Positions 45,281-63,935 of a stretch of DNA of 64,000 bases are shown here, piece by piece (within the stretch, counting starts at the first letter, position 1; each line of letters starts with the position of its first letter). The translations under genes and the position numbers were made by a program. Under the pieces are notes generated by a model. That model did no database searches. It was given only the letters and a program-made list of their open reading frames with translations, and was not told where the DNA came from. The DNA comes from Candidatus Dojkabacteria bacterium (lineage in GTDB: Bacteria > Patescibacteriota > Dojkabacteria > SC72), in the NCBI GenBank assembly GCA_018056375.1, contig JAGPFQ010000001.1:522231-586230 (forward strand). Reading direction: 5' to 3'.

Positions 45281-45294
45281 TACCTCCAGAACCC

Positions 45295-47073: not shown

Positions 47074-47136
47074 AAACTGATTGTAATGATTATATAAGTG
47101 TGCTAATTTATTAATATAATTTTACTAAATAACCTT

Positions 47137-47934
47137 ATGAAAACAGAAGAAATATCCGTAGAGGAAGTCACAAAGACAGAGGAAAAGAGTGTTGTAAAAT
47201 CAAAATCACCTGTCATTATCTTAACTATAGCCCTTGCATTCATATCTTTACTAGCTTTAGGTATGTTACTCTATCGTTTTAACAATCAAAGCCAAAAATC
47301 TACGATGGAAAAAGATTGTATATGTAAAAAATGCGAAGAGAAGAATGACTGTGATTGTTCATTAAAGGGGACAGAGTTAACAAATTCAGGTTGGGCTTTG
47401 TATTCCCTACCCGACATTAAGTTTAGTGTAGAAATTCCTTCAGATTTTATTAAATTTAACCTTGATAATAGTGATCATGATTTAAAGTCAAGATGGACAA
47501 TAACTCAATATATTGATCCCGAAAATAAATCTAAAGATTTTGGAGAATATATTAAAACTATAAATATGGAATTCTCACCTTTTTACATCAAAGTTCCTTC
47601 TTTAGACATTCCAACACATGGTGAAAGCTTCATATATGTTACTGTGTTAAAAAATACCAAAGAAAAAACACTCGAAGAACTTTGGACTCTTGAAAAAGCC
47701 CCTTATGAAGACCCTGCAGATGAATATAAAGTAGAAGGCAAATTAATAGAGAAGTGGGGAGTACCTGCATATGAGTTTAAGATAAGTGGTGCTCCATACG
47801 GACCATACACAGGATATTTAGTTGTAAGTAATGGGTTCGTATATAGAATCTCTTACAATTTCTCTACACTTAAAGAAGTTGCTGAAGCCACTAGTTCAGG
47901 TATAAAAATAATAGATTCTATACAGTTTAACTAA
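47137..47934 (+). CDS. Hypothetical membrane-anchored secreted protein
   Basis: N-terminal TM helix. No recognisable domain. Confidence 0.3.
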   Translation: MKTEEISVEEVTKTEEKSVVKSKSPVIILTIALAFISLLALGMLLYRFNNQSQKSTMEKDCICKKCEEKNDCDCSLKGTELTNSGWALYSLPDIKFSVEIPSDFIKFNLDNSDHDLKSRWTITQYIDPENKSKDFGEYIKTINMEFSPFYIKVPSLDIPTHGESFIYVTVLKNTKEKTLEELWTLEKAPYEDPADEYKVEGKLIEKWGVPAYEFKISGAPYGPYTGYLVVSNGFVYRISYNFSTLKEVAEATSSGIKIIDSIQFN

Positions 47935-49826
47935 ACAAAGAGTTCCTCAAATTCTTCTCTTGTAACAACTTCTTTCTCTAGTAGCAAGTCAACCAATTTA
48001 TCAACATACTCTTTCTGTTCTGTTAGAACTTTCTTAGCATCCACATATGCCTCATCAATCAACCTCTTCACTTCAGCATCTATTGTCTTTGCTGTTTCCT
48101 CACTAAAGTCTCTGCCACCACCATATTTATATCCTAGATGAGAAGTCTCATCCATATCACCATATTTAACCATACCTAACTTTTCACTCATACCGTATTT
48201 CATAACCATCTCTTTAGCTAATTCTGTTGCCTGCTCAATATCTGCAGAAGCACCTGAAGAAATATCATCCAAGAATATCTCCTCAGCAGCTCTACCACCA
48301 ACACCACTCCTCAACCAAGCCAACATCTGGTTCTTGTAAAGAGTTCTCCTCTCTTTTTCTGGTATGTAAACTGTTACTCCTCCTGTCATACCTCTTGGAA
48401 TAATGGAAACCTGCTCTACTGGGTCAGAACCTGGTGTAAATTTAGCAACAATCGCATGTCCTGCTTCATGATATGCTGTCTTCCTCAAATCCTCTTCCTC
48501 TGTCTCCCTGTTTTTCTTTCTACCAAGTTTAACCTTTAAAAATGCTTCATCAATATCATCCTGCCCTATCTCCTTATCACCTTCCTGTGCTGCCATAATA
48601 GCTGCCTCATTAAGAATATTTTCTAAATCTGCACCAGAATACCCTATTGTCTTCTTAGCAAGATCCTTTAGATTAACACCATCCGCAAACTTCTTGTTCT
48701 TAGCATGTACTTCTAAAATTTCTTCTCTGCCCTTAGCATCTGGCATATGAACCACAACCATCCTATCAAACCTACCAGGTCTTAAAATCGCTGGATCAAG
48801 AACATCTGGCCTGTTTGTAGCTGCAAGTACAATTACATTCTCTCTATCTTCTAAACCATCCATCTCAACAAGAATCTGATTAAGAGTCTGTTCACCTGCA
48901 CCAGAATGAAGTACCGTACCTCTCTTCTTAGCAACAGCATCAATCTCATCGATAAAGATAATACATGGTGTAGTATTCCTTGCCTTCTTGAAAAGGTCTC
49001 TCACTCTAGATGCTCCAGCACCTACCAACATCTCCTCAAATTCAGAACCAGATGTATGGAAAAATGGAACACCAGCTTCACCAGCGATAGCTTTTGCTAA
49101 GAGTGTCTTACCTGTACCAGGAGCACCTGCTAGAAGAACACCTCTTGGGATTCGTGCTCCCAAATCTCTATATTTCTTAGGGTTTTTAAGAAAATCTACT
49201 ATCTCTGTCAATTCCTCTTTAACATCATCAATACCTGCAACATCATCAAAAGATGTCCCTGTCTTCTTACCAAACAACATCCTAGCTTTACTCTCACCAA
49301 AATCCATAATCTTACCACCAGAAGCCTGCATATTTTTAATCATGAAAAACCCAAGTGTTACTGCTGCTGTTAAAAAGAGTAAAGTCAACACATCACCAAA
49401 AGATATTCCAACTTTTGGTTCATAGAAATCATCTCCTAATTCCTTAATATTTATCTCTGCATCAGAGAGGACTTGATAGAAATCCATTCCTTGAGGTAAT
49501 CTTGCATACTCTTTTCTAACAACATCCCTACCAGCAATCTTTTCTTCCTTTTCTAACACAACCATATCATCTTTCAGAACAATCTTGTCATAGTCTTTCT
49601 CTGAAATACTTGTAATCACATTACTAACAGAAACTTCCTCTCCTTTATAGGAAAGAAGACCATAAAGATACATACCTAGAGACACTAAAACTACTATACT
49701 TATAATAGCAGGAACACTAGGAAGCTTAACTCTTCTCCCTGTAGGCATCTTTCTCAAATCCACAACATATACATTCTTCTTATCTTCTGTCTTTTTATTC
49801 TTCTTTTTATCTTTCTGTTCGCTCAT
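47931..49826 (-). CDS. ftsH: ATP-dependent zinc metalloprotease FtsH
   Basis: Two N-terminal TM helices, AAA+ Walker [29 protein letters not shown], the second region of homology (SRH), and zinc-binding HEAGHAIV. Confidence 0.95.
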
Positions 49827-49876
49827 AGACCTAAAGTTTCAATTTTAAATAAGATAGGAATATTATCTTTAAAGTA

Positions 49877-49950
49877 TGGTGGGAAGTGGAATCGAACCAC
49901 CGACCTTGGGTTTATGAATCCCATGCTCTAACCAACTGAGCTATCCCACC
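49877..49950 (-). tRNA. tRNA-Met (anticodon CAU), elongator-type; tRNA-Ile2 (lysidine CAU) not excluded
   Basis: Minus strand folds as GGUGGGA/UCCCACC acceptor (G1-C72), D arm GCUC/GAGC, anticodon loop UUCAUAA, T arm GGUGG-UUCGAUU-CCACU. CCA is not encoded. Confidence 0.85.
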
Positions 49951-50062
49951 AAGTACTAGCAATTATATCAAAGAACTCCAGATAAGGTAACCGCAGGTGT
50001 TTGTATATACAGAGAGCGGACTATTAGTGATTTTGAAGAGATATTTAACATACTATAAGGTG

Positions 50063-50623
50063 CTAAGATGCTTTTCCTGTATACTGTCCTGTTTCTGTAT
50101 TAATTTTAACAATATCTCCCTGTTTAATGAAAAGAGGAACATGAACCTTGTAACCTGTCTCTAGAGTTACTTCTTTTGTAGCTGAGCTAGAAGTATTCCC
50201 CCTCACTGCATCAACCGCCTTTGTAACTTCAAGTTCAACCGATGGATTCTCTTTCAAAGTTAGTATTTTCCCTTCATAGACCATTACTAAAACAGTTTCT
50301 CCCTCTTTAAGAAATTGAACGTAGTCACCAACAACATCCTTTGGAATCATAACGGTTTCGTATGTTTCTGAATCCATGAAATATGAACCTGCATCATCAG
50401 AATACAAGAATTGGAAAGCTTTTGTCTCCGGTTCTATATATTCTACCTTAGCACCAGCCTTAATAGTCTTGTTTACAATTTGCCCATTATCTAAAGCTTT
50501 CATCCTAAGTATTATCAATCCCCCTTGTCTTCCTTGTGTTTTTAATTGTCTCTCCTGTACAAGAAAAACTCTACCTTCTTCTAAAAGATACATTCCTTTT
50601 ACTGGTTGTGTTGTTATTGGCAT
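50063..50623 (-). CDS. efp: Elongation factor P
   Basis: KOW-like N-domain and OB domains; GDIVKINTETGQYTGKAS C-terminus. The loop residue at the usual K34 position is Arg (KTQGRQGG). Confidence 0.88.
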   Translation of the reverse strand: MPITTQPVKGMYLLEEGRVFLVQERQLKTQGRQGGLIILRMKALDNGQIVNKTIKAGAKVEYIEPETKAFQFLYSDDAGSYFMDSETYETVMIPKDVVGDYVQFLKEGETVLVMVYEGKILTLKENPSVELEVTKAVDAVRGNTSSSATKEVTLETGYKVHVPLFIKQGDIVKINTETGQYTGKAS

Positions 50624-50689
50624 ATTAACATCTACTTAATTAAACAGTGGGATTGTATCAATAGAAACACCAAATTACAATATTTTAAA

Positions 50690-51979
50690 CTATCCCACAC
50701 CAAATACTTTGAGAGCTATACGTATTTGGTTTATATCTTTCTCTTGCTCTTCCTTTGATAGCTCTACAAAATTTTTACCTAATTCTGTATCTGCTGCCCA
50801 TCGATTCCTTTTCAGCCATTCTTGATGAATCTTCTCACCTATCTCGTTGTATGTTTCCCTATTAGAGAGATCTATTTCAGTCCCCATACTATTTATAATG
50901 CCTACAACTACCTTTGCAGCTGCACGATTTTCAACCTGCCAACCCTCCAACAAATTTTCAAAAGCAGTATCAGTAACATGAGTAGCAGACTCCTCATCTT
51001 CTTCCTCTTTCGTCTTACGCCAATCTTCATGTAAAGCATCGGCAACTTTATCAATAAAGTCAAAAAACTCTACAACCTTAGGAAAAATCTCCTTCCTCAT
51101 TAAAATACCATCATACTTAACCCCTTTATCCATATTAGAAAGATTAAAGACATTTGAAAACAACTCTGTAGAAGCAGAATCTATTGTTAAAAAGTAATTA
51201 AAACCATCAATAATATCAACAACAGAAAGAAGAAGATAATCTAAACTGTTCTCCCCTTTTATCTCACTCAAAACTCTTCTAATATCACCTTCTAATTCTC
51301 TTACTTTTCTTACAGCATCTGACAACTCAAGTTGAACAACCCCTACTCTCTCTCCCTGAATTTCATAAAACTTAAACTCCTCCCTCATTATCTCGTCTAA
51401 ATTCCCTTTATTAATATTTGATTTATACTCAAACATACTTGCTACATAGCTACTCTCAACCATACTAATCTCCTTCAACCATTCCCCCATATCCCTATCT
51501 CTCTGTGTTGTTACATTGTTTCTAAAGTTGACAGTATTAGAAACAACCGCAGAGTAAAGAAGGACTGCAGTGTGTCTAGAAGGAAGAACATTTGCTTCCT
51601 GAAACCTCTCAGCTATCAATGTAGCACAGGACCCTACTAAATCTATATGCAGTTCAGCATTAGGAAAACCTTGTATATATGCTAACTTTCTATGATCTAT
51701 AACCTCTACAACATTGTTAATATCTATCAACTCATCAATACCATCAGGGTCAGAAACATCAACCAGAATAATATCTCCATCACCATACCCATTCTGTACC
51801 AATTCAATATTCAAACCACCCAAATATTTCTTAACAAACTCTGTTTCCTCACCAATATCTCCTGCATATACCGCTCTTGCTTGCTTACCTTGCATATTCA
51901 GTAGTTCAGCATAACCAATAGCACATGCAACACAATCAATATCTGGATTTACATACCCCGTTATTGTTACCATAGTCAT
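50690..51979 (-). CDS. DHH/DHHA2 phosphoesterase, family II inorganic pyrophosphatase (PpaC)-like with about 130-aa C-terminal extension
   Basis: ITGYVNPDIDCVACAIGYAELL (DHH motif I), ILVDVSDP, EVIDHRK (DHH-like), a DHHA2-like central segment, and an extra acidic/helical C-terminal region. Start chosen at MTMVTITGY; the ORF track starts at 52012. Confidence 0.5.
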   Translation of the reverse strand: MTMVTITGYVNPDIDCVACAIGYAELLNMQGKQARAVYAGDIGEETEFVKKYLGGLNIELVQNGYGDGDIILVDVSDPDGIDELIDINNVVEVIDHRKLAYIQGFPNAELHIDLVGSCATLIAERFQEANVLPSRHTAVLLYSAVVSNTVNFRNNVTTQRDRDMGEWLKEISMVESSYVASMFEYKSNINKGNLDEIMREEFKFYEIQGERVGVVQLELSDAVRKVRELEGDIRRVLSEIKGENSLDYLLLSVVDIIDGFNYFLTIDSASTELFSNVFNLSNMDKGVKYDGILMRKEIFPKVVEFFDFIDKVADALHEDWRKTKEEEDEESATHVTDTAFENLLEGWQVENRAAAKVVVGIINSMGTEIDLSNRETYNEIGEKIHQEWLKRNRWAADTELGKNFVELSKEEQEKDINQIRIALKVFGVG

Positions 51980-52051
51980 ATTGATATTACCACACATTGA
52001 GTTCCTTGACATATTTAAGTATTTCGGTGATAAATAGGTAGAATAATTTAA

Positions 52052-53293
52052 TTGAATAAATATATGGAAAACAAACCAATTAAATATTGTCTCTTAGTAC
52101 TTGGTTCATTACTCCTTCTAGTCATTGGAGCAATTTTTGGAGCCAAATATATGTACGATAGAAATGAAGAAACAGTAAAAAATGTAAAACCAAAAGGAAT
52201 GATGTTGTTAATTGAATTTAACAATACCGATGGACTAGCAAATATGGTAAATGATATGAGAGAGAGAAATATTAAAGGATTGTTAATGGTAAATGCTGAT
52301 TTCATAAAGAAAAACGCTGAAGAGTTGAAAGAAATTCTTAAAACAGGAGTAGTAGAACTCTGCCCTTCATATGATCCAGAGCCTTTTTGGGGAATGCCGT
52401 ATGAAAAACAACATACAATTATTAAGGAAATGTTAGAAAACTCCAAAGAATATCTAGGTGTTACTCCAAGAGCTATTAGTTCAAGATATATGGCATCTGA
52501 TGAGACAACACTAAAGGTAGCTGATGAATTAGGGATTGAATATATCACAGCGAGGGGTACAACAGAGTTAGCAACAACTATCTACAAACCAGAAGAATAT
52601 GATGTAAAGATTATCTCTGTCTCAAATATTGATGTCCCAGAATTCAAATATGGTAGTTTCTGTGATTACAGTTTCTATGAAAGAGCTGGAGAACCAGAGG
52701 ATATGGAAGAGCAATTTAAGAGAGCTATCCAGAACAAGAAGATAATGGCAACATCACATACATATATCGGTGGATACAAAGAGAGATGGAATGAGATGTG
52801 GCATAGATTGTGGGATAACTATGGTGTTGAATGGGTAGATTTAGATACTTTAGGAACTGTAGACAAGACTATGCCTACATGGCAGATTCCTGTAAACAGA
52901 AATGCACCATATACTCCAGAGAAAATTAGACCTAAACTTGAATTCCAAGATGAAGCTAATGTAATGAATCCATGTAAGGTAGAAGACCTTAATGAAGATA
53001 GTACATATGTACCAAAAGAGAAAAGCAACAGAGTTGTAGTATTCCACAATGGAAGTGGAAACATGTGCTTAGATTTATTAGCTTTCTTTAAGGAACACAA
53101 CATTGAATATGAAGAGCATTTAACAACAGATACTGACTTTATCTCACAACTTAATTCTTACAAAAAAGGAAAAAGTGAGGGTGTATCTGACTCATATGGA
53201 TACTACCCTATTATCTTTATCAACGACAGAGCCTTCTCCGGATTTAACAAAGATATAGAGGGAGAAATCAAGAAGATATTGGAGATTAAGTAG
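52052..53293 (+). CDS. Membrane-anchored hypothetical protein with a C-terminal thioredoxin/glutaredoxin-like segment
   Basis: N-terminal TM helix. C-terminal VVVFHNGSGNMCLDLLAFFKEHNIEYEEH...YPIIFINDRAFSGF resembles a Grx-like fold. Weak call. Confidence 0.3.
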   Translation: MNKYMENKPIKYCLLVLGSLLLLVIGAIFGAKYMYDRNEETVKNVKPKGMMLLIEFNNTDGLANMVNDMRERNIKGLLMVNADFIKKNAEELKEILKTGVVELCPSYDPEPFWGMPYEKQHTIIKEMLENSKEYLGVTPRAISSRYMASDETTLKVADELGIEYITARGTTELATTIYKPEEYDVKIISVSNIDVPEFKYGSFCDYSFYERAGEPEDMEEQFKRAIQNKKIMATSHTYIGGYKERWNEMWHRLWDNYGVEWVDLDTLGTVDKTMPTWQIPVNRNAPYTPEKIRPKLEFQDEANVMNPCKVEDLNEDSTYVPKEKSNRVVVFHNGSGNMCLDLLAFFKEHNIEYEEHLTTDTDFISQLNSYKKGKSEGVSDSYGYYPIIFINDRAFSGFNKDIEGEIKKILEIK

Positions 53294-53298
53294 AAAAA

Positions 53299-53373
53299 TG
53301 GTTGCGGGGGCTGGATTCGAACCAGCGACCTTTAGGTTATGAGCCTAACGAGCTTCCACTGCTCTACCCCGCG
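53299..53373 (-). tRNA. Initiator tRNA-fMet (anticodon CAU)
   Basis: CGCGGGG...CCCCGCAACCA with the C1:A72 mismatch, A11:U24, anticodon loop CUCAUAA, G30-C40/G31-C39 in the anticodon stem, T loop UUCGAAU, encoded CCA. Very close to the E. coli tRNA-fMet body. Confidence 0.9.
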
Positions 53374-53409
53374 GTAACTACCTATTTATACCACTTTTTA
53401 AGCTTTTGT

Positions 53410-53865
53410 TCAAATACCGTATTTAAGAAATTCGTACCAAACAATATATGTTGGATCTTGAACCTTCTCCTGATTACCATAAAGGTATGTATTAACACCC
53501 TCTTTTGCATGTTCTAATAAAGATTCAGGTATGACAAAAATATATTCATTCTCCCCACTAAAATTCAACCTATCTCTCGCCTGTACTTCCAAATATTCAG
53601 GTGTTTGCATAGATTCTAATGCTAGTTCTAACTCTAAATTCTTCAGTCTCAATTCATCTACCTCCTGTTTTGCTCTTTTTGATATCTCGAGCTTCTCGCT
53701 TGTTATTTTAATCGAGTTATATACACTGTAAAAAAGAAAAATTGCTATACCCACAAGTGCAATCTGCACTAATTTACTGCTGAGAAACACGTTGGCAGGT
53801 TTTTTAACCCCTCTCGATTCTTCAGTTACTAACTCTTTTACATCTCTGTATATTACTTTCCCCAT
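53410..53865 (-). CDS. FtsB/DivIC-like septum formation initiator (TM + coiled coil)
   Basis: Single TM helix (IALVGIAIFLFYSVY) followed by a heptad coiled coil (EVDELRLKNLELELALESM). Confidence 0.45.
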   Translation of the reverse strand: MGKVIYRDVKELVTEESRGVKKPANVFLSSKLVQIALVGIAIFLFYSVYNSIKITSEKLEISKRAKQEVDELRLKNLELELALESMQTPEYLEVQARDRLNFSGENEYIFVIPESLLEHAKEGVNTYLYGNQEKVQDPTYIVWYEFLKYGI

Positions 53866-53940
53866 ATCTTATATTAACAGTTTAAGGAAGTATGCTCAAC
53901 TACAACATTTCGAATACATAAAGTCATAAAAAAGAGTCTC

Positions 53941-53967
53941 TTTAGCTTTTTCTTACAAAAAGCTAAA
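53941..53967. promoter_or_regulatory. 27-nt perfect palindrome in the divergent promoter region between the FtsB-like and recombinase genes
   Basis: TTTAGCTTTTT-CTTAC-AAAAAGCTAAA (11-bp arms). Confidence 0.3.
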
Positions 53968-54074
53968 GTAAACCCATATACTTTTACTATTGCTCTCAAC
54001 CCTTAAGGGTGATATAATTAGTCTATAGCTGTAGAATGCAGTTGCATGCCCCTTAATTTAAGGTTTTTGCAGAT

Positions 54075-54962
54075 GTGGCAGATATAAACAACGTTAACTT
54101 CAAAGAAAAAGCAGAACTTTTTGCCAAGGATCTAACTTCCAAAGGAAGATCTGAGTCCACTGTTATCGCTTATGCAAAAGACATTGAGCAATTATTAAAC
54201 TATCTGTCGAAAAGAGGAATTCTTTCTTTAGATAAAGTAACTATCGAAGATTTAGAGGGATATAAACAAAACCTACAGGATAATAACTACACTCCAAAAA
54301 GTGTCTCTAGAAAAATAAATAGTACTAGAACTTTCTTCAGATTTCTTTTGGAAAACAACTTTGTAAGCGATAATGTTTCCGAGAAATTAGCACATCCTAG
54401 ATTTGAAATTAAGCCACCCAGAGTACTAACAGAGATGGAGTACAGAGCATTAAGGGATGTTAGTAGAGTTGATATTAGACTCTACTCTATTGTAGAGATT
54501 CTTCTTCAAACAGGAATTAGAATTGGAGAATTAGCAGGACTTTCCCTTGATGATATTAGAAAGTCAAAGGATGGAAAGATTGATTTTCTTTACATTAAAG
54601 CTGCTGGTAGCCATCCAGCTAGAAAAGTTCCCCTAAACAAGTCTGCAAAGAAAGCATTAGATGATTATATTGCAGTTAGACCAGAGACAGAAGAAGATAC
54701 TATTTTCATCACAAAGAATGGTAGACCTTTACTGGTAAGAAATATTAGAACTGCAATAGATAAATCTTTTGAGAGAGCTGGTATTAAGAATGCAAAGGTT
54801 AATGATCTTAGAAACACTTTTATTGCACATCATTTGGCCAATGGTGTTGGACTACCAACTGTATCAAAGCTTGTTGGACATAAGAGACTTTCTACTACAG
54901 AGAAATATCTGAATATTATTCCAGCTGTTGGTAAGGAAGAAAAGAACCTTAAGGAACTCTAA
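54075..54962 (+). CDS. Tyrosine site-specific recombinase, XerC/XerD family (GTG start)
   Basis: N-terminal SAM-like core-binding domain. Catalytic-domain residues: R in ...GIRIGELAGL..., H-x-x-R in FIAHHLANGVGL / LVGHKRLSTTEKY, with the terminal Tyr in EKYLNI. Confidence 0.8.
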   Translation: MADINNVNFKEKAELFAKDLTSKGRSESTVIAYAKDIEQLLNYLSKRGILSLDKVTIEDLEGYKQNLQDNNYTPKSVSRKINSTRTFFRFLLENNFVSDNVSEKLAHPRFEIKPPRVLTEMEYRALRDVSRVDIRLYSIVEILLQTGIRIGELAGLSLDDIRKSKDGKIDFLYIKAAGSHPARKVPLNKSAKKALDDYIAVRPETEEDTIFITKNGRPLLVRNIRTAIDKSFERAGIKNAKVNDLRNTFIAHHLANGVGLPTVSKLVGHKRLSTTEKYLNIIPAVGKEEKNLKEL

Positions 54963-55138
54963 ATAATTAACTCTTAATACAGGTTCAGGTTACCACACTT
55001 ACTTTCCCTTTCCCCATATGGACTATTACCGTTTTATTATGATTAGTTAACAAATTACAGGGTACTGTTTCCCTGTCACTATCTAACACCGAATCACAGT
55101 TTTGACTGAGGATTCTTCTCTTATATCAATGAAAAGTA

Positions 55139-55212
55139 TGGGAATAGGTGGACTCGAACCACCGACTTCGGCTTTATAAGAACCGTGCTCTGACCTCCTG
55201 AGCTATATTCCC
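55139..55212 (-). tRNA. tRNA-Ile (anticodon UAU)
   Basis: Minus strand GGGAAUA/UAUUCCC acceptor, discriminator A73, D arm GCUC-AGGAGGUCA-GAGC, anticodon stem CGGUU/AGCCG with loop CUUAUAA (U34 A35 U36), T arm GGUGG-UUCGAGU-CCACC. CCA is not encoded. Confidence 0.8.
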
Positions 55213-55261
55213 ATATACAATGGGTATTTTACCAAAACTCTGATGATTTTAGAAGCCTCTA

Positions 55262-57766
55262 CTAAAACATTGGTGGAAAACCTGCAGAAGGTTGAGGTTG
55301 AGCTACAGGCTCCTCCTGTTCAAGTTGAGACCTAATACGAATATCTTCTGCAACAACATTTACATCCCTTCCATACTTCATCCTAGACATCTCTTTAATC
55401 ACTTTTACAACACTCTCATCTATAGGTAAATCAAACCCTGACTCTGGAAAAGCTTTACCATAACTGGTATCAAGAGAAAAAGGTGCGGGATATGAACCAT
55501 CAACAAGAAGTTTTGTATAGTAATGAGCCATACCCTGATTTACAATATCTCCAGCTGTAACATAACCTTCAAATGGAGTTTCTAAAAATTGTGCATCTTC
55601 AGGACTGCATCTGGCAATATACAGAGAACCTACATTTCCAAAAACAGCATCTTTAATATCCTCTGGTAATTGTCCAATATATTGATGTGCTAAAGTAAGA
55701 TTTAGTCTGTATTTCCTTGCTTCTGAAAGAATAGAGGTGAACTCCTCAGTAGCAAAGTTTTGAAACTCATCAGCATAGAAGAAGAAGTCCCTTCTCTCTT
55801 TTTCAGGGATATTCTCTCTACTCAATGCTGCAGCAAGAAGTTTTTGTACAATCAAAAGACCAAGAAAGGACATATTCTCATCTCCTATCAAACCTTTAGA
55901 AAGATTTACAACCAAAATCTTACCCTCATCCATAACCTGTCTAAAATCAAAAGAAGATTTAGATTGACCAATTATATTTCTAATAGCTAAGTTCGTAGTA
56001 AACTTATCAAACTTCGAGATAAAATATGTCAAAGACTCTGCCTTTGTCTTTTTATCTGTCTTTGCAACCTGATCAGTCCAATATCTAACAACCAATTCAT
56101 CTTTAACCAATGGTAACCAATGACTCATAACCCATTCTTCATCTTGAAGAATTCTCACCACTTCTATCAATGTAGAATCTGGTTTAGCCATAGCTGTTAA
56201 CATAGAGTTTCTTACAGCTTGCTGGAATGCTGGACCTGTGTAACCTTGATTATGTGGGTCAAAGAGCCTTATGAGTAAAGCAAGGAAACTATTTACAATC
56301 TGGTGCTTATGCTGCTCATTATAATATTCCATAATATTAAAACCAAAAGGTCTCTCAAAATCACCAGCATTAAAATAGATAACATCCTCTGCTCTCTCTG
56401 CTGGAATCCTTTCCAATATCATATCTGCAGCAGAACCGTGAGGGTCTATAAAGCAGACACCATCACCGTTATATATATCTTGCATAATCATCCTTACCAT
56501 CAACCAAGATTTACCAGTACCTGTTTGACCTAGTATATATGCATGTCTTCTCCTGTCATCCCTTTTCGAACATATCATCTTCTTTTTCCCTCTAAAGTAG
56601 TTATTTCCAACCCAAACAGTGTCTGGAGAGTTAATATCCGAACTTATTTCATTATCAGCAGGTAGTTCTTTTGATAACAACCATTTAATATTAGGAGTAG
56701 TTATTTCTTTATTTGGGAAATGATACAATGCTGCAAGTTCTTCAATGTTTAATATACTCTTCTCATTCTCAGGTGTCCTTCTGTAGATTACATCGTAGAG
56801 GAAAGCCTCCTGCTCTCTTTTCTTTACTTCTTTTTTCTCTAACCTATTAATTCCCGGATTATTATACTGATCAAAAGCTGCAACAATATTATCCAAATGC
56901 ATTTTGGCAATTGCTTTGTCTGGAGCACTAGTAACAATTCTAATCTCTGCCATCAACCCTGGTTTGGACACCTTCTTGTTAACAGCTTCTAATTTCTCCT
57001 GAGGCACATCTATTTTCTTTTTTTCTGGATCTGAGTTATTCTTCTCTATACTTTGAACAAACCCTCTACCTTTTTTCTGCCATTTAGAATCAGTAGGAGC
57101 AACTGCTAATTGGACTAATGCTCCCTCATTCTCGGCCATTTTACTAAGAGTACTAAGAACATTAGCTATTGGATCGCCAGTAAAGCCTTCAGCCACTCTA
57201 ATTGGATAGTATGACTCCTCTTCTAAAACAAGTCTTGCACATTCTATCTCTGTGTTAGGAGCAAAGATGTTGTATTCATCTACGACAGCTACATCAGCAT
57301 CTTGATACGAACCAAGTATTTGCTTTTCTACTAAATCAGCATACTTCCTTGGGCAGTGAACAAAGAACCTTATCTCTCCAGGAAGACCTACCATTTCAAA
57401 ACTTACACTGTTGCTAACATCAAACAATCCTAACAAGCCTTTGCTCTTCCCTCCTATGCCATGTATATTTGCAAACATCTGCTCTGCAGTACCTATTTCC
57501 ACCTCGTTATCCCGTATTACTCTAACTTCCAGAAGAACACCATCACTAGCTTTTTCATTTCTATCCTTCTTTTTTAACTTCTTTCTTACTAAAAAAAATG
57601 CTCCTACACATATGGCTATAAGTACAAAAATCAATGTTATCGTACCCCAAGGGATTTCAGTGTTTTCAATACTTTTAGCATTGTCAGGATACCGCATAGT
57701 ACTACCATCCTGTTTTGGTAAAGAAGGACCAATTAATTGTGTATAGAGAATGTCTTCAGGCAACAT
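55262..57766 (-). CDS. Type IV secretion coupling protein-like ATPase (VirD4/TraG/TraD family)
   Basis: N-terminal TM helix (ITLIFVLIAICVGAFFLV), Walker A YILGQTGTGKSWLM, Walker B FFFYADEFQNF, about 830 aa. Confidence 0.6.
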   Translation of the reverse strand: MLPEDILYTQLIGPSLPKQDGSTMRYPDNAKSIENTEIPWGTITLIFVLIAICVGAFFLVRKKLKKKDRNEKASDGVLLEVRVIRDNEVEIGTAEQMFANIHGIGGKSKGLLGLFDVSNSVSFEMVGLPGEIRFFVHCPRKYADLVEKQILGSYQDADVAVVDEYNIFAPNTEIECARLVLEEESYYPIRVAEGFTGDPIANVLSTLSKMAENEGALVQLAVAPTDSKWQKKGRGFVQSIEKNNSDPEKKKIDVPQEKLEAVNKKVSKPGLMAEIRIVTSAPDKAIAKMHLDNIVAAFDQYNNPGINRLEKKEVKKREQEAFLYDVIYRRTPENEKSILNIEELAALYHFPNKEITTPNIKWLLSKELPADNEISSDINSPDTVWVGNNYFRGKKKMICSKRDDRRRHAYILGQTGTGKSWLMVRMIMQDIYNGDGVCFIDPHGSAADMILERIPAERAEDVIYFNAGDFERPFGFNIMEYYNEQHKHQIVNSFLALLIRLFDPHNQGYTGPAFQQAVRNSMLTAMAKPDSTLIEVVRILQDEEWVMSHWLPLVKDELVVRYWTDQVAKTDKKTKAESLTYFISKFDKFTTNLAIRNIIGQSKSSFDFRQVMDEGKILVVNLSKGLIGDENMSFLGLLIVQKLLAAALSRENIPEKERRDFFFYADEFQNFATEEFTSILSEARKYRLNLTLAHQYIGQLPEDIKDAVFGNVGSLYIARCSPEDAQFLETPFEGYVTAGDIVNQGMAHYYTKLLVDGSYPAPFSLDTSYGKAFPESGFDLPIDESVVKVIKEMSRMKYGRDVNVVAEDIRIRSQLEQEEPVAQPQPSAGFPPMF

Positions 57767-57837
57767 AAAAGGACAGTATCATCTTATGCATACAGAATAA
57801 CACAGTGAAAAGTATATATCAAAGGGGAAACTAAACA

Positions 57838-58176
57838 TTACAGAGGAGGCTCTCCATCTCTCTTTCTAACAACAATTTCAGCTGCACCATCACCAGAAGT
57901 CTTATTACCATCTTCATCCCAAGTTGGAGGATATCCAGAGCCATTCCATTCGTCATTTTTTGGTTTCTTCTCATCTTCTCTTAAAATCCATGGAGTCCCT
58001 TCATTATCATTATCCCTAGAATTTCCTGTTTCTGCACTATGGATTTGAGTTGTTCCTGTTTCAACATTTCCAGCACTAGCAACAGGTTGAAGAGTTTCAA
58101 CACCAGGCGGAGTAGAAGATAAAGTTTCTAATGCCTCCTCTAAAGTTTTGACAGGTTGTTGTTCAATGCTATTCAT
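57838..58176 (-). CDS. Acidic hypothetical protein
   Basis: ORF only. Confidence 0.2.
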   Translation of the reverse strand: MNSIEQQPVKTLEEALETLSSTPPGVETLQPVASAGNVETGTTQIHSAETGNSRDNDNEGTPWILREDEKKPKNDEWNGSGYPPTWDEDGNKTSGDGAAEIVVRKRDGEPPL

Positions 58177-58182
58177 AGTATA

Positions 58183-58626
58183 TTATACCATGAATTTCCT
58201 GCTTTCGTAAAGCATTTCCCTGTCTAAATCTCTTTCTCTTTGCTTCGCTTTCTTCTCATATTGCTTTTTCCCTTTAGCAAATGCCACCTCTACTTTTATA
58301 AGCTTACCTTTTGTATATATAGAGAGAGGAATTAAGGTTAATTTTTTAGCTTGTATTTTACTCTGGACTTGTACTAATTCTTTCTTTTTTACCAACAGTT
58401 TTCTGCTTCTTCTACTATCATAGTGTTCATCAGAACTATATTTGTACTGAGGGATTTCCATATTAATAATGTAGAGGTCTCCATCTACTACTTTAACAAA
58501 AGAATCTGTAAGGTTTACTCTTCCATCTTTAATACTTTTAACTTCAGCTCCTGTTAAAACAATACCAGCCTCAAAGCTATCTACGATAGTGTAGTTGAAT
58601 GTAGCCTTTTTATTTGAAATTTTCAT
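58183..58626 (-). CDS. smpB: SsrA-binding protein SmpB
   Basis: KKATFNYTIVDSFEAGIVLTGAEVKSIKDGRVNLTDSFVKV...YESRKFMV, the canonical SmpB sequence. Confidence 0.9.
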   Translation of the reverse strand: MKISNKKATFNYTIVDSFEAGIVLTGAEVKSIKDGRVNLTDSFVKVVDGDLYIINMEIPQYKYSSDEHYDSRRSRKLLVKKKELVQVQSKIQAKKLTLIPLSIYTKGKLIKVEVAFAKGKKQYEKKAKQRERDLDREMLYESRKFMV

Positions 58627-58637
58627 GTCATATTATA

Positions 58638-61013
58638 CTACAATGCTATTCTCCAAACAGTTGTACCATCCAATACATACATATTTTCACCATTGTAGTC
58701 TACTACAAAGTCTTTTACATTGTTCAATACTGTATTATCATCACCTCGATATTCATACTGTTTTATCAAAAGTAGTTGATTAGGATGTCTTAAATCAGCA
58801 CCTCCTTCTTGTGGTTTTTGGAAGTGGAAAAACCTTTTACCTTCTGCATCAAACATGTAAAGACCACTATCCATACTATCTGCAAATGTGTATCCTTTAG
58901 TAATCTTACCTAACCCACCAGAGGGACCTGTAACACCTAATTCTGTCTGTATCTGCTTCTGCTCAAAGTAACTCCATGAGTATCTTACTATTCCTATTTC
59001 TTGTTCTACTGTTACATAGACACTAAAATCACCAAGAATATCTCTTGCATCTGCGAACAGTTCGTTTTCGATATATTTACTCAACATAGAGTATCTGTCA
59101 CCATATACTGCAGTTGACCTTAATATTGCTTTTTGATCTGCAGATAATAGGTATACATTATCATTCTCTGTAAGGATTATCATATCTTTAATGTCCGTGG
59201 CTTGAATATCTCTTCCTAAAAGACCTGGTAGTGATATTGCATTTTCTATTCCACCATCCTTGTTAAAAGGTATTTTGATAACACCAGCATCTTTATCATA
59301 TACAAAAGCCCCTCCAACACCAACAGAAACATTCATTGGACTCTTAAATAGTTTCTCCGTATCAGAAACTATCTGAATGGATGGTGTTTCTCCCAGTGGT
59401 GTAAAGAAGACAGCCTTTTTACCTTTGTCTGTAATAAAGATACCCTCTTTGCCATGGATGTCTCTGTATATCTCAATATCCGTTGGTTCACTACCCTCTC
59501 CTGAGCCATTTAAAACCATATCTAGATAACTGAAAATATTATTTTCCTCTTTTGAAACACCTACTTTCTTAAACAATCTATCCCCTATTTCCGATATCCT
59601 TACCTCTATTTTCTTCTTTGTTTCCTCGTCCTTTTCTCGAATACCTTCTGGAATCTCTTTAAATATCTGGGTGGCATCAAAATACGTTGTTTCTGCACTA
59701 GTTCTATCGGTTTCTAAATTACTTTCTGTTTTCTCTAAAAGATTCTCTATCTTTCTAAACTTCTCATTCGCATCCTTACCTAATTCGTTTAACTTCTTTG
59801 TTTTAATTGTAAAGTTAACTCCTAACACTATTAGTAATACCACAGCTAAGATGCCAAAGAGTTGTTTAAATCTCTTTCCTCTTAAATCTCTAACTTTGTA
59901 ATCATCTATTCTCATTACAGGGGTAGATACTCTCCTTACCGGTCTTCTACCTAAACTCATTTGTGAGTATCGTGCCATAATTCTTTTGAACCATTGTTTT
60001 TGTGCGAATTGTTTTGTAATCTTTTCCCAAAGTATAGAGAATATCTCCCTTATCTTTTGTCCTATTTTTGTAAGAACGGCTTTAATCTTCTCACATATTT
60101 CTTTTATCTTTTGTTTTATTTCTTCTGTTGGTTTTACTTTTGTATATGCATTGACAAAAAAGTTTTTTATTTTAGCTAGTATTAAAGATATTTTGTTTTT
60201 TTCTTCACTTCTTCTCTTAACCTCTTTTACATAGAGCTTTGGTCTCTTAGAGATATCTTCTTGTTGTTCTAATTCTAATCTAGCTTCCTCCTTTTCCTCT
60301 TCATCTTTTGGAATGAATGACTGTACTATCTTTGAATTTTCTTGTTTAGAATTGTCTATCTCTTCTTTTGGTTTGATTGGTTCATCTGTACCAAAAGCAA
60401 GAATAGCAGAAGAAAGTGGTAGGTTCACCCCTATTTTAGTAATCTCCCTGTATACCTTCTTCTCTTTTGTTGATGATACTATGTCTGGTATATGTGTAGA
60501 GAGTATTCCTTCTGTAGAGACAAGGAGGGCTTCATTTTCTTCAAGAACTATACCTGCAGTATTTGCATTTTTACTCTTCATAATTTCACTAATGTTAATT
60601 GCCTGACCTGCTTTGAGCACATAGATCTCACCATCCCCTATCGAACCTATGTAGAAACCTTCTTTCTTTTCTAATACCACAAGGATTGTTGTTTTAATTT
60701 CAACATCTTCAATATCCTTATCTGTTTGCATCAATGTTTTTAACTTATTAGTACCTTCTTCAAGAGCATTCTTCATTGCCTCATTTGTTGTTTTTGTATG
60801 AGCGTAGAGATATCCATCAGATATACTATCTATTACAAATTTAGAAAGCCGAACAAGTGGGGCTTTTTGTTCTGAAGATATTTTAAGAAGAATGTAAAGA
60901 TTACCATCTTTGGCTGATTTCTCCTCTCTGTTCTCAAAGAGATTTCTGTATATTGTCACATATGAGAGACCATTCTTCTCATTTGATATGTATTGTTGGG
61001 CAGGCGTTTTCAT
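58638..61013 (-). CDS. Large hypothetical single-pass membrane protein
   Basis: 791-aa ORF with a central TM helix (LFGILAVVLLIVLGV). No recognisable domain. Confidence 0.3.
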   Translation of the reverse strand: MKTPAQQYISNEKNGLSYVTIYRNLFENREEKSAKDGNLYILLKISSEQKAPLVRLSKFVIDSISDGYLYAHTKTTNEAMKNALEEGTNKLKTLMQTDKDIEDVEIKTTILVVLEKKEGFYIGSIGDGEIYVLKAGQAINISEIMKSKNANTAGIVLEENEALLVSTEGILSTHIPDIVSSTKEKKVYREITKIGVNLPLSSAILAFGTDEPIKPKEEIDNSKQENSKIVQSFIPKDEEEKEEARLELEQQEDISKRPKLYVKEVKRRSEEKNKISLILAKIKNFFVNAYTKVKPTEEIKQKIKEICEKIKAVLTKIGQKIREIFSILWEKITKQFAQKQWFKRIMARYSQMSLGRRPVRRVSTPVMRIDDYKVRDLRGKRFKQLFGILAVVLLIVLGVNFTIKTKKLNELGKDANEKFRKIENLLEKTESNLETDRTSAETTYFDATQIFKEIPEGIREKDEETKKKIEVRISEIGDRLFKKVGVSKEENNIFSYLDMVLNGSGEGSEPTDIEIYRDIHGKEGIFITDKGKKAVFFTPLGETPSIQIVSDTEKLFKSPMNVSVGVGGAFVYDKDAGVIKIPFNKDGGIENAISLPGLLGRDIQATDIKDMIILTENDNVYLLSADQKAILRSTAVYGDRYSMLSKYIENELFADARDILGDFSVYVTVEQEIGIVRYSWSYFEQKQIQTELGVTGPSGGLGKITKGYTFADSMDSGLYMFDAEGKRFFHFQKPQEGGADLRHPNQLLLIKQYEYRGDDNTVLNNVKDFVVDYNGENMYVLDGTTVWRIAL

Positions 61014-61014
61014 T

Positions 61015-61350
61015 TTATGCTAATACTAAAAACAGTAGGGCTAAAAGAGACCCTATTACTGTTGTTATTATATATATTACTGTTACACTTTTTACAATCT
61101 TGTTTTGAGAAGTGGAGAACGTATCTGAGAGTAATCTGGTTCTTAAGAAAAGAATTAAGGAAAACAAGACATTACCTAGGATAAATAGTACTAATGGTGC
61201 TTTAACTATCGATTGTATTTTTATCTTTGGTAATTCATTTGTGAGTTTAGGTGTTTCTACTGAATCCATAACCTCCCTAATTTCTCCTACCTTTGAGGTT
61301 TTTCCTAATATTTCTGGTTGTATTTCTTCTAAGATTTGATATGGATCCAT
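61015..61350 (-). CDS. Hypothetical membrane protein (YdbS-like partner?)
   Basis: Two TM helices. Start overlaps the stop of the upstream bPH gene by 1 nt. Confidence 0.25.
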   Translation of the reverse strand: MDPYQILEEIQPEILGKTSKVGEIREVMDSVETPKLTNELPKIKIQSIVKAPLVLFILGNVLFSLILFLRTRLLSDTFSTSQNKIVKSVTVIYIITTVIGSLLALLFLVLA

Positions 61351-61979
61351 TATATTTCACCTCCTTTTTTTAACTCTAAAAGATCTGAAAGTATATCTTG
61401 TACCTCTTTAGGGTTTGCTACTTCATCAAACTCTATTTCAGCTTTCGAACCAGCTGTTTGTATATATACTGTTCCTATGTTAAAGAAATTAGAGAGAAGA
61501 CCTACCTGTTTTGTTGTTATATCCTCTATTTTATCCAATCTTGCTTCTGTAGCTTGGTATGTAAAGAGTGCTTTAATATCTATATCTACAACTCTTTGAT
61601 CTGTAATTATATTCACATTGAAAAACCATTTTAGAAATGTGAACATTGCAATTGAGAGAGCAATTAGGAATATTATTAGGAAAAGAGCAAGACCTATGAG
61701 TAGACTTCCTAGGAATTTAGGTGCGAGGAGAAGACTTACAATAGCTAGTATCACTAGGAATATAACTAAGAGTATTTGTCTTAAAAATGCACCCCAATGT
61801 CGTCTAGTCACCAGTATTACTTGTTCGTCATTGTCTTTTCCTACAAATGTGGTATTTCTAGGGAAAGGCATGAATGTTTCAGAGGATTTTCCTTGGAGAT
61901 GAGCAATGAATGATTTATCCATTTTGCTATACTTTTCTGGAATATTTTCATTACTATTCTTCATAGTTGAGAATACCAT
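61350..61979 (-). CDS. Bacterial PH-domain (bPH_2, YdbT/YdbS-like) membrane protein
   Basis: Two TM helices followed by a PH-like beta segment (ITDQRVVDIDIKALFTYQATEARLDKIEDITT). Confidence 0.4.
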   Translation of the reverse strand: MVFSTMKNSNENIPEKYSKMDKSFIAHLQGKSSETFMPFPRNTTFVGKDNDEQVILVTRRHWGAFLRQILLVIFLVILAIVSLLLAPKFLGSLLIGLALFLIIFLIALSIAMFTFLKWFFNVNIITDQRVVDIDIKALFTYQATEARLDKIEDITTKQVGLLSNFFNIGTVYIQTAGSKAEIEFDEVANPKEVQDILSDLLELKKGGEI

Positions 61980-62045
61980 AGAATTGTATTGAAAACAAGG
62001 GATTTAGAAGTGTTTTTGAAAAACAGAAAATTCAAAATTATCTGT

Positions 62046-63935
62046 TTAATTTTGAACTATATTTATATGAATAAATCCTGGACATCCTCCACACTTTTGT
62101 GGAATGGATAAATATCCAGGAGCACGCATATTAAAGACATCTCGAAACACTGCTGTTGCCCCAGATGCTGATGTACTTCCATTAATAGCATAGGTTGTTA
62201 TTGATCCATTTTTTAACTGAACAGTAAAATTGAGCCGAACTGTCCAACCATTAGCATTTATCGCTTCAGCTTTAAGGACTTTTGCGATAGGGTCTTTCAC
62301 AAGATTCGCAAGCTCAGCATGTGAATACGGTTGTTCATTCTTCCCGAAACATGTATTAATATCTATCGCTGTCAACCTAGGATCAAATGCTGGTGCTCCA
62401 GGAGATGTGAAATATTTATAAGCATTTAGTATATCTGCAAGTTCCTCACCTGTCATCCAAGGCTTAGGATGAGTAGAACACGCTGTACCATTTCTTTGAT
62501 ACCAAATCTTATGAAACCAAGCTACACCTGCAAGTCCTTCCCAAGCCCTTTCTGTCCAAGGACCCTGTAAAGTTGTATTAACATCGTAACCGACACCATT
62601 AATATATCCACCAGTTACACTTGAATATTGAGTCGAGAATATTTCTCCTGAAGAATTTGCAAGAGTCATACCTTTTGTCTCAGCAACAGCTTTAGCCCAA
62701 GCTCCTCCATAAGGATTAGATGGATTATACACCTGACATGCTTGTGTAGTACAAATACTTTTAGAACCATTCCGCGTGTAGTTAACAGCAAATGTTCGAG
62801 AAGCTATGGCCTGTGCTTTTAAATTGTTCATATCCTGCGGTGTGTCTTTATTAAAAATTGGGTCTATCTCTCTGATACCCAAAAGATATTTCTCTAAATC
62901 TACCTTTCCATAGCCATCAACAGATATTTTTTCAGTTATAGAAGTTTCCACTTTATTGGGGAGCTTAACTGTACCTGTTTTGATTCTTTTTGTTTTGTAG
63001 TAGAAGCCTAGAATATCTAAATATGACTGACCATTAAGAGCCCTTTCCCAAGCACCCCACTGACTCATTCCATTTCTGTGAGTACTAGCTCCAAAACTAA
63101 ATATCCCAAATGTTCCACGAGGTGCATTTGCTTTGAAATATGCTAATTGTGTTGTTGGCTCTGCATTACTGGAAGGAACATTCGTACCAGATAAATCACC
63201 TCCACCCTTTAAATACAACAACATCTGCTGACTAGCAGATATCTCTTTTGCAAGCCCCCCTATTTGTGCTTTGATTGCACTTTTCTTTGCATTTTCTCTA
63301 TTCAACTCCGCCTGTAACTTAGCCCTCTCTTTATCTAACAATGCATATGATTTATCCAACTCATCCTTCTGTTTATCTAAAACCTCTTTCTCTTTATCCA
63401 AACCCTCCTTTGCTTCAACTAAATTACTAAATTCACCACTAATCTCCTCAACCCTATCCTTTAATATATTAAGAGCTCCTTTTCTAACATAAAAGCTTTG
63501 TACTAAATCCTTCCAATCAGAGAAAACAAAATTAGCAAACCTATTCCTACTCTCTACATACAACAAACCAGATATGGAATCCATACTCCCTCTAACCTCT
63601 TCTAATTCCTTCTGTTTCTGTTCTAATTCTAACAACTTCTTTTCAATCTCCTTAGCTTTACTATCAGAATTCGCTTTAGCTTTGTTAAGCTCCTCAGTCA
63701 TCAATCTAATCTTCTCCTGTAAAGATGCATTACTATCCTTAATTCCCTTAATCCTACTCTCTACTGTTTCTAATATTGATTTTTTACTAGAAAGCTCCTT
63801 CTGTTTTTGCTCTATTTGTTGTTCTAAATCAGCAATACCTTGTGCATTAACCACTCCTATGTAAGGAGTACAGAGAGAGAAAATGAATATTATTAAAAGA
63901 AAAATTGTTTTGTAATTTCCGGACAGTTTCTTCAT
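62046..63935 (-). CDS. SpoIID/LytB-domain cell-wall protein with N-terminal coiled coil
   Basis: Signal peptide, about 230-aa coiled coil, then SpoIID/LytB motifs (GTFGIFSFGASTHRNGMSQWGAWERALNGQSYLDILGFYY). Confidence 0.7.
   Translation of the reverse strand: MKKLSGNYKTIFLLIIFIFSLCTPYIGVVNAQGIADLEQQIEQKQKELSSKKSILETVESRIKGIKDSNASLQEKIRLMTEELNKAKANSDSKAKEIEKKLLELEQKQKELEEVRGSMDSISGLLYVESRNRFANFVFSDWKDLVQSFYVRKGALNILKDRVEEISGEFSNLVEAKEGLDKEKEVLDKQKDELDKSYALLDKERAKLQAELNRENAKKSAIKAQIGGLAKEISASQQMLLYLKGGGDLSGTNVPSSNAEPTTQLAYFKANAPRGTFGIFSFGASTHRNGMSQWGAWERALNGQSYLDILGFYYKTKRIKTGTVKLPNKVETSITEKISVDGYGKVDLEKYLLGIREIDPIFNKDTPQDMNNLKAQAIASRTFAVNYTRNGSKSICTTQACQVYNPSNPYGGAWAKAVAETKGMTLANSSGEIFSTQYSSVTGGYINGVGYDVNTTLQGPWTERAWEGLAGVAWFHKIWYQRNGTACSTHPKPWMTGEELADILNAYKYFTSPGAPAFDPRLTAIDINTCFGKNEQPYSHAELANLVKDPIAKVLKAEAINANGWTVRLNFTVQLKNGSITTYAINGSTSASGATAVFRDVFNMRAPGYLSIPQKCGGCPGFIHINIVQN

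Follow-up and report, generated by a model that had tools for sequence, protein, structure and literature searches.

The window considered here, by which we mean the whole stretch of 64,000 nucleotides that was analysed, is a piece of cellular chromosome (34% G+C) from a Candidatus Dojkabacteria bacterium, and its minus strand carries three transfer RNA (tRNA) genes: ARAGORN reports a tRNA(cat) at 49876..49951, a second tRNA(cat) at 53299..53373 and a tRNA-Ile(tat) at 55138..55213. It is the last of these, an isoleucine tRNA with the anticodon UAU, that concerns us here. In bacteria, the making of lysidine by TilS is regarded as essential and almost universal. In the Dojkabacteria genome at hand, we consider it very probable that a functional tRNA-Ile(UAU) reads the codon AUA in place of tRNA-Ile2(CAU) and TilS.

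The existence of a genuine isoleucine tRNA gene with a UAU anticodon at this locus (Table 1) is confirmed. The Rfam model RF00005 matches 55212..55139 over its full length with 68.6 bits (gathering score 29; E = 7.7e-13) and zero non-standard pairs; with a score above the gathering score and ARAGORN in agreement, the gene belongs to the tRNA family. The canonical cloverleaf described in an earlier, sequence-only reading of this DNA is thus borne out, as are its coordinates and the discriminator A73; the strand, which that reading left unstated, is minus, and the ARAGORN run that it proposed returned tRNA-Ile(tat). Its stem architecture of 7/5/5/5 has to be amended to 7/4/5/5, as the D stem has four pairs (G10-C25, C11-G24, U12-A23 and C13-G22). 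The RNA reads GGGAAUA UA GCUC AGGAGGUCA GAGC A CGGUU CUUAUAA AGCCG AAGUC GGUGG UUCGAGU CCACC UAUUCCC A, without an encoded CCA. Its anticodon loop comprises C32-U33-U34-A35-U36-A37-A38 (CUUAUAA), the anticodon being window bases 55176..55178, where the plus strand reads 'ata'; ARAGORN and Rfam place U34-A35-U36 in the same register, and neither gave the different register that would have unseated it.

Table 1. Features of the window discussed in the text, with their positions in the 64,000 nucleotides
Feature	Coordinates	Strand	Evidence or remark
tRNA-Ile(UAU) gene	55139..55212	minus	74 nt; ARAGORN and Rfam RF00005
Initiator tRNA-fMet(CAU)	53302..53373 (to 53299 with encoded CCA)	minus	67.1 bits (Rfam); C1:A72 mismatch
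Elongator-type tRNA(CAU)	49877..49950	minus	69.8 bits (Rfam); 50 nt upstream of ftsH
ftsH	47931..49826	minus	NCBIfam TIGR01241, 698.9 bits
Xer-type tyrosine recombinase gene (xer)	54075..54962	plus	XerC/XerD/XerA family matches; convergent with the UAU tRNA
xer-tRNA spacer	54963..55138		176 bp
Terminator-like hairpin, weak T tract	55057..55076	minus	62 nt downstream of the tRNA 3' end; consensus scan only
VirD4-like coupling-protein gene	55262..57766	minus	PF02534 T4SS-DNA_transf; ends 49 nt upstream of the UAU tRNA
TrsD-like and VirB4-like genes	29897..32970
Predicted Erm-like methyltransferase gene	22849..23730	plus	293 aa; NCBIfam 'Erm23S_rRNA_broad' 235.7 bits (cut-off 212), KsgA/RsmA 157 (cut-off 171)
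RuBisCO large-subunit homologue	2745..4169	minus	form II-like (PRK13475, 535 bits); also matches the type III model

The gene is not an isolated case. A first, over-specific pattern for the tRNA gave zero matches in metagenomes, and a generic pattern for bacterial-type tRNAs with a UAU anticodon was used instead; in JGI metagenomes it returned at least 120 loci (individual loci are designated below by L and a number). Among the matches listed are 106 distinct UAU tRNA sequences, which align without gaps and in which 99.2% of the cloverleaf stem cells hold standard pairs, against 22-41% in controls with slid partners. Double-sided changes account for 612 cells and affect every one of the 15 stem pairs on which the search pattern placed no constraint, and the covariation score was matched by none of 500 shuffles; pairing and covariation in this tRNA are thus far beyond chance. 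The closest of the listed relatives share 93% (L177), 91% (L086 and L094), 86% (L148) and 83% (L113 and L150) identity with the window tRNA, and compensatory changes are found among the close relatives, for example GGGAAUA/UAUUCCC becoming GGGAGUA/UACUCCC. The median G+C content of the listed loci is 38%, leaving aside those whose tRNA is at least 90% identical to a viral-contig tRNA. In other words, an intact, conserved and genomically encoded tRNA with U34-A35-U36, the mark of decoding of the Mycoplasma mobile type, is present.

What amino acid does this tRNA carry? The pair G3:C70 occurs in the window tRNA and in 88 of the 106 sequences overall, and G3/C70 is listed as an isoleucine indicator among ambiguous tRNAs (Silva et al. 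2006, PMC1635315), which supports an isoleucine-type body. Among annotated E. coli genes the closest is that for tRNA-Ile, matched at a median of three places per genome, and the features compatible with isoleucine comprise G3:C70, A73, A37, A38 and U12:A23. The E. coli isoleucine elements C4:G69 and C29:G41 are not present; A4:U69 and G29:C41 stand in their place. Judged by its sequence, the body of the tRNA is shown to be of isoleucine type, and its charging with isoleucine may be presumed.

The codon that it would read is in heavy use. The sequence-only reading had proposed a check of AUA usage, and across 49 window open reading frames (ORFs; 19,372 codons) AUA supplies 676 of the 1600 isoleucine codons (42%), next to 703 AUU and 221 AUC; this amounts to 34.9 per 1000 codons, or 3.5% of all codons counted. 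The meaning of the codon was read from an alignment of the window FtsH with 102 homologues. Columns beneath AUA codons hold isoleucine (38%), valine (19%) and leucine (17%), with methionine outside the six commonest residues (at most 3%); columns beneath AUG hold 32% methionine, and the AUA columns resemble AUU columns and are unlike AUG columns. As the residues beneath AUA are isoleucine, valine and leucine, AUA is shown by the predicted coding sequences to stand for isoleucine and to place a heavy decoding load on this genome.

Whether the UAU tRNA is the dedicated AUA decoder turns on the two tRNAs with CAU anticodons, an elongator-type and an initiator, both of which were found where the sequence-only reading had placed them. 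The elongator-type tRNA has U3:A70, G4:C69 and G5:C68 in its acceptor stem, and it fails the Ile2 signature of G3/A3 with C70/T70, C4:G69 and C5:G68 (Silva 2006, PMC1635315) at all of the listed positions. In L002 and L113 an orthologue is again found upstream of ftsH, and the same tRNA order is found in L148. A BLAST search of this tRNA against annotated E. coli genomes gave tRNA-Phe as the best match and did not separate Met from Ile2. Counts for the class were taken from Nakagawa et al. 2026 (PMC13011429), whose Table S2 gives ARAGORN and tRNAscan-SE 2.0 counts for 95 complete Patescibacteria genomes. ARAGORN labels all CAU tRNAs as Met, and the tRNAscan-SE columns evidently omit fMet and Ile2, to judge from the Saccharimonadia, whose counts are Ile 1 and Met 1 by tRNAscan-SE versus Ile 1 and Met 3 by ARAGORN. 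In all seven complete Dojkabacteria genomes ARAGORN counts are Ile = 2 and Met (CAU) = 2, and tRNAscan-SE counts are Ile = 2 and Met = 1; three or more CAU tRNAs are present in each of the 36 Saccharimonadia, 29 of which have a single Ile tRNA. For Dojkabacteria, two CAU tRNAs (fMet plus the Met of tRNAscan-SE) and two non-CAU Ile tRNAs, taken together with the UAU genes in the window and in relatives, are most simply read as GAU plus UAU. By elimination, then, tRNA-Ile2(CAU) is probably absent from the class Dojkabacteria and UAU is the dedicated AUA decoder; without a tRNA-Ile2(CAU) in the class, the elongator-type CAU tRNA of the window would be the elongator Met, and TilS would be left without a substrate.

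The anticodon stems of the CAU tRNAs have features of their own. The elongator CAU tRNA combines U32 with a mismatched A31-A39, its L002 orthologue (4807..4880) has A-G at 31:39 with C32, and a CAU tRNA from a second lineage that resembles the candidate phyla radiation (CPR; L096, 996..1072) has A-C at 31:39 with U32; a mismatched 31:39 may be a lineage trait of CPR tRNA-Met. The initiator has two of the three canonical G:C pairs in its anticodon stem (A29:U41, G30:C40, G31:C39), as do the initiators of the Dojkabacteria-type relatives L177, L086, L113, L148 and L002.

Searches for tilS were uniformly negative within their reach. No window ORF of at least 120 aa matches the TilS family of NCBIfam, and a hidden Markov model (HMM) built from 55 TilS proteins encoded adjacent to ftsH in non-CPR genomes found no ORF at E <= 10 in the window, in L002, in L022 or in 769 kb of UAU-bearing loci (120 UAU tRNAs). 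Likewise, no gene called in the flanks (20 kb in all, 10 kb on each side of the window, read from closely related contigs) encodes PF01171. With only about one tilS expected by chance in 0.77 Mb, these local negatives make it likely, short of a demonstration, that the genome of the window is devoid of tilS. A TilS profile run against a collection of 5.8 billion proteins returned Clostridia-like TilS as the best 120 of 8000 matches, which is uninformative on Dojkabacteria. A further local test is offered by ftsH. A search of genome contigs with FtsH gave 80 mostly non-CPR loci (best identity 59%). In 55 of 80 non-CPR loci tilS is found just upstream of ftsH, an arrangement that the CPR loci L002 and L022 do not share; in the window the gene upstream of ftsH is the tRNA(CAU), followed by efp, and the usual (hpt-)ftsH slot holds no tilS. 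The gene for isoleucyl-tRNA synthetase (IleRS), ileS, was not found in the window or in the UAU and relative loci examined, where the ORFs containing KMSKS are ValRS- or LeuRS-like by sequence motifs alone. Of the claim in the sequence-only reading that AUA is decoded without lysidine, the UAU decoder and the class-level count of two CAU tRNAs stand firmly, and the absence of tilS stands as a strong deduction from local searches. That reading had also named tilS, occurring together with a second CAU tRNA of isoleucine type, as what would overturn it; the CAU tRNA lacks the Ile2 signature, and the tilS part is answered locally, none having been found.

The setting of the gene is chromosomal. 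The proteins of the window, ten of them matched exactly, are NCBI MBP8979369..MBP8979420 on a contig of 644,853 bp, and near-identical relatives are found on contigs of 750-763 kb. The window encodes, among others, GroEL, a form II/III-like RuBisCO, IF-2, NusA, DnaJ, a sortase, a short AlaRS, LepA and RecF, as well as VirB4- and VirD4-like proteins, an ATP-dependent DNA ligase, PolA, FtsH, EF-P and SmpB. A promoter scan of 54900..55500 found no sigma-70-like promoter, and with the VirD4-like gene immediately upstream on the same strand, co-transcription of the UAU tRNA with that gene is possible; the terminator-like hairpin beyond the tRNA is a candidate terminator. The order UAU tRNA, xer, fMet tRNA, CAU tRNA, ftsH is kept in L177, L086, L148, L113, L002, L202 and L204. 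The Xer-type recombinase is also found in L002 (the nearest relative among species-representative genomes, where a TsaD gene adjoins xer), L177, L202, L203 and L204, and the identification of xer as the integrase of a mobile element was rejected in favour of a conserved Xer-type chromosomal neighbour.

Between xer and the tRNA, strains differ: the short spacer of the window corresponds to a stretch with two ORFs (182 and 179 aa) in L177 (6089..7403) and with three (62, 178 and 299 aa) in L203 (16844..18736). Genes resembling those of a type IV secretion system (T4SS) surround the tRNA region, the TrsD-like, VirB4-like and VirD4-like genes among them, and five tandem T4SS pilin genes lie just past the window end (read in L202, 7844..9589).

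In the metagenomes a different arrangement is common. At 28 of the 73 evaluable loci the gene directly preceding tRNA-Ile(UAU) on its strand is ftsH, in 20 cases within 170 nt, and a frequent order is rpsA-ftsH-tRNA-Ile(UAU)-tRNA-Val(GAC); ftsH-linked loci include L102, L186, L163, L129, L153 and L110. As an aside, ftsH neighbours a component of AUA decoding in both systems, tilS in non-CPR genomes and the UAU tRNA at metagenome loci.

How might AUA be read in these cells? U34 would pair in Watson-Crick fashion with the A of AUA, and the AUN box would be shared by four tRNAs: Ile(GAU), encoded elsewhere in the genome, Ile(UAU), the elongator Met(CAU) and fMet(CAU). By analogy with described systems, IleRS may accept U34 by having a basic residue where the E. 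coli enzyme has Trp905, or by being a type-2 enzyme, and misreading of AUG through U34:G could be held down by competition from tRNA-Met, by ribosomal discrimination and/or by modification of U34. A37 and A38 of the UAU tRNA are in place for t6A37. In M. mobile, Arg865 of IleRS replaces the Trp that stacks on the wobble base, U34 is unmodified and ribosomal discrimination has been measured (Taniguchi 2013, PMC3575796); as this lysidine-independent mechanism is known, the window tRNA does not represent a new one.

The likeness to M. mobile goes further. In both, AUA is heavily used in a small, A+T-rich genome and is read by an encoded UAU anticodon (PMC3575796, PMC1635315), and tRNA-Ile2(CAU) is missing, in M. 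mobile from the species itself and here, probably, at the level of the class. M. mobile, however, is one species of Mollicutes, whereas we are dealing with Patescibacteria, a whole class and probably several classes of them; and the IleRS change, the unmodified U34 and the ribosomal discrimination, all measured in M. mobile, are here no more than possibilities. In Bifidobacterium and Neorickettsia without tilS, tRNA-Ile(UAU) likewise replaces tRNA-Ile2(CAU) (PMC3575796); there the replacement is explained by a type-2 (eukaryote-type) IleRS, which for Dojkabacteria is only one possibility. Lactobacillus casei, L. plantarum, Cyanothece PCC 7424 and Ferrimonas balearica also have a UAU tRNA gene, but these four species keep tilS and tRNA-Ile2(CAU), whereas complete Dojkabacteria genomes have only two CAU tRNAs. 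The same decoding solution was reached independently by the archaea Nanoarchaeum equitans and Korarchaeum cryptofilum (UAU, no Ile2) and by eukaryotes, whose tRNA-Ile(UAU) has introns and a modified U34 (pseudouridine-A-pseudouridine) and which, like the archaeal cases, belong to another domain. That UAU can replace lysidine in a bacterium is known from a suppressor of a tilS deletion in Bacillus subtilis, tRNA-Ile1 G34U (Fabret 2011; Kohrer 2014, PMC3919564); the suppressor is a laboratory mutant of the GAU tRNA, whereas the window tRNA is a long-established separate gene with acceptor and anticodon stems of its own.

Several points weigh against a genome that relies on the UAU tRNA alone. 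The counts of Table S2 are per amino acid and not per anticodon, so that 'Ile = 2' is taken, not read, as GAU plus UAU, and a tRNA-Ile2 split by an intron would escape both ARAGORN and tRNAscan-SE. The U3:A70 of the elongator-type CAU tRNA is neither the Met-typical C3:G70 nor a listed isoleucine indicator; it fits neither class, and the Met identity of this tRNA thus rests on elimination. The searches for tilS and ileS covered the 64 kb window and 20 kb of flanks from related contigs, of a 645-kb contig, and UAU tRNA and tilS do occur together in Lactobacillus casei, L. plantarum, Cyanothece and Ferrimonas (Taniguchi 2013, PMC3575796).

These points bear most directly on two alternatives that would return lysidine to the genome. 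One has tilS and tRNA-Ile2(CAU) encoded elsewhere, with the UAU tRNA as a second reader of AUA; such redundant genomes exist, and this arrangement has been proposed for L. casei and L. plantarum (Taniguchi 2013, PMC3575796). A marine (TARA) locus, L099, encodes an Ile2-type CAU tRNA (G3:C70, C4:G69, C5:G68) as well as a UAU tRNA, Ile = 2 goes with CAU = 3 in two of the four ABY1 genomes and in a few Saccharimonadia (Table S2), and the sequence examined covers about 13% of the window genome. We nonetheless hold redundancy to be unlikely, given that all seven complete Dojkabacteria have just two CAU tRNAs and that no TilS appeared in any sequence examined (window, flanks and UAU loci). On L099 itself, the two tRNA genes (3401..3478 and 4768..4841) lie about 1.3 kb apart, and that genome may have both decoders. 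The other alternative makes the elongator-type CAU tRNA of the window a tRNA-Ile2 and TilS substrate, with elongator Met encoded elsewhere. It is like the UAU tRNA in the variable loop and T arm (AGGUC GGUGG UUCGAUU CCAC), the two tRNAs sharing 72% identity by a base-by-base count, it is without the Met-typical C3:G70, and it adjoins ftsH, the usual site of tilS. We regard this as very improbable: every Ile2 indicator (G3/A3, C70/T70, C4:G69, C5:G68) is missing, of the two CAU tRNAs in each complete Dojkabacteria genome tRNAscan-SE 2.0 counts one as Met and neither as a further Ile, the matching tRNA of another CPR-like lineage (with U32, a 31:39 mismatch and an fMet/CAU/UAU cluster) does have C3:G70, and an elongator tRNA-Met is required by every genome.

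Could the UAU tRNA instead be a recently acquired accessory of a phage or integrative element, lying as it does between recombinase and VirD4-like genes? A narrow pattern for the window tRNA had no match in viral contigs. With the generic pattern, 98 IMG/VR contigs carry a UAU tRNA, one metagenome UAU tRNA group sits on a contig bearing a terminase, and the stretch between xer and the tRNA varies among strains. Yet no more than 80% identity is reached by the closest tRNA on a viral contig, and a different T/CCGGACA acceptor type dominates the viral set (44 of the 98). Moreover, the recombinase is a conserved Xer-type chromosomal gene present in L002 as well, the VirD4-like gene is part of a T4SS-like set that keeps its position across the related genomes and contigs examined, no duplicated, att-like copy of the tRNA 3' end was found in the window or relative loci examined, and synteny persists down to 83% tRNA identity; a mobile origin is the least credible of the alternatives. 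A further possibility concerns mechanism and is compatible with AUA decoding by the UAU tRNA in place of TilS: U34 might carry a modification (pseudouridine, an xm5U-type or an undescribed one) that limits pairing with G. The eukaryotic anticodon has pseudouridine-A-pseudouridine, modification was left open for M. suis (Taniguchi 2013, PMC3575796), and with AUA at its observed frequency misreading of AUG would be costly, but the sole measured bacterial case, M. mobile, has an unmodified U34, and no gene for a U34-modifying enzyme was seen in the window. We entertain a modified U34 tentatively, as conceivable and rather doubtful.

The metagenome search also brought out a separate UAU tRNA family, with the acceptor TCGGACA/CCGGACA, in seven metagenome loci (L085, L108, L115, L116, L127, L185 and L190) and 44 IMG/VR contigs. 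Of the metagenome members, one shares its contig with a terminase gene and a second was sampled from the human gut. From these sequences, phages with such tRNAs are predicted to supply their own AUA reader.

Other features of the window deserve mention. CpG is depleted across positions 1..64000, with an observed/expected ratio of 0.25 versus 0.83 for GpC, which is extreme for a bacterium; the window ORFs use 50 CGN against 688 AGR arginine codons, and NCG codons are also rare. The depletion might stem from CpG methylation with deamination or from avoidance of restriction. By its profile scores, the methyltransferase of Table 1 is a predicted Erm-like 23S rRNA methyltransferase in a CPR genome. 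The RuBisCO large-subunit homologue is well conserved among Dojkabacteria, and form II/III-like RuBisCO is of the kind reported in CPR nucleotide-salvage pathways.

How widely does UAU decoding extend? We counted in Table S2 (PMC13011429) the genomes with ARAGORN Ile >= 2 and CAU <= 2, the counts again being per amino acid. This pattern is found in all complete genomes of Dojkabacteria (7/7) and Microgenomatia (12/12), in 13 of 20 Paceibacteria, in 2 of 4 ABY1 and 2 of 5 Gracilibacteria, and in the one genome each of Doudnabacteria, WWE3 and UBA1384 (1/1 in each case), for a total of 39 of the 95 complete Patescibacteria, or 39 of the 59 outside Saccharimonadia. At least three CAU tRNAs are present in the Saccharimonadia (36/36), JAEDAM01 (7/7) and the Kazan genome. 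Among the metagenome groups, the L109 UAU tRNA group is Dojkabacteria, and the FtsH that adjoins the UAU tRNA in L102 shares 85-94% identity with its 119 best database matches, most of the named ones being Candidatus Staskawiczbacteria, next to one entry each for Jorgensenbacteria, Gracilibacteria and 'Patescibacteria group'. As lineages of Parcubacteria, Staskawiczbacteria and Jorgensenbacteria are taken here to be part of the GTDB class Paceibacteria. That UAU decoding with loss of tRNA-Ile2(CAU) and TilS is the standard in most Patescibacteria classes, often at an rpsA-ftsH-tRNA-Ile(UAU)-tRNA-Val locus, is a proposition on which we are evenly divided, and we hold the balance just as level for its reach, namely all complete Dojkabacteria and Microgenomatia, most Paceibacteria, ABY1, WWE3, UBA1384, Doudnabacteria and some Gracilibacteria.

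The literature gives a narrower picture. Bacterial tRNA-Ile(UAU) has been recorded in nine species (Taniguchi 2013, PMC3575796) and in 17 genomes (tRNAscan-SE 2.0, PMC8450103), and a 2026 preprint speaks of 'rare cases'; Nakagawa et al. 2026 (PMC13011429) mention neither UAU nor tilS, and in the literature searched no paper pairs lysidine with Patescibacteria or the candidate phyla radiation. The statement of the sequence-only reading that an encoded UAU occurs in only a minority of lineages holds for the bacteria described so far, and on the count of 39 of 95 it probably does not hold within Patescibacteria. What appears to be new, therefore, is not the mechanism, which is already known, but its class-wide and probably radiation-wide breadth, which we found discussed in no paper.

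If UAU decoding does hold across these classes, several consequences would follow. TilS would not be usable as a universal bacterial marker or drug target across Patescibacteria, and annotation pipelines should not expect an Ile2 tRNA in these classes. Additionally, there would be many independent natural test cases of how the ribosome and IleRS cope with U34 wobble onto AUG. Much of bacterial diversity would in that case do without lysidine, and it may hold undescribed adaptations of IleRS, of the ribosome or of U34 modification.

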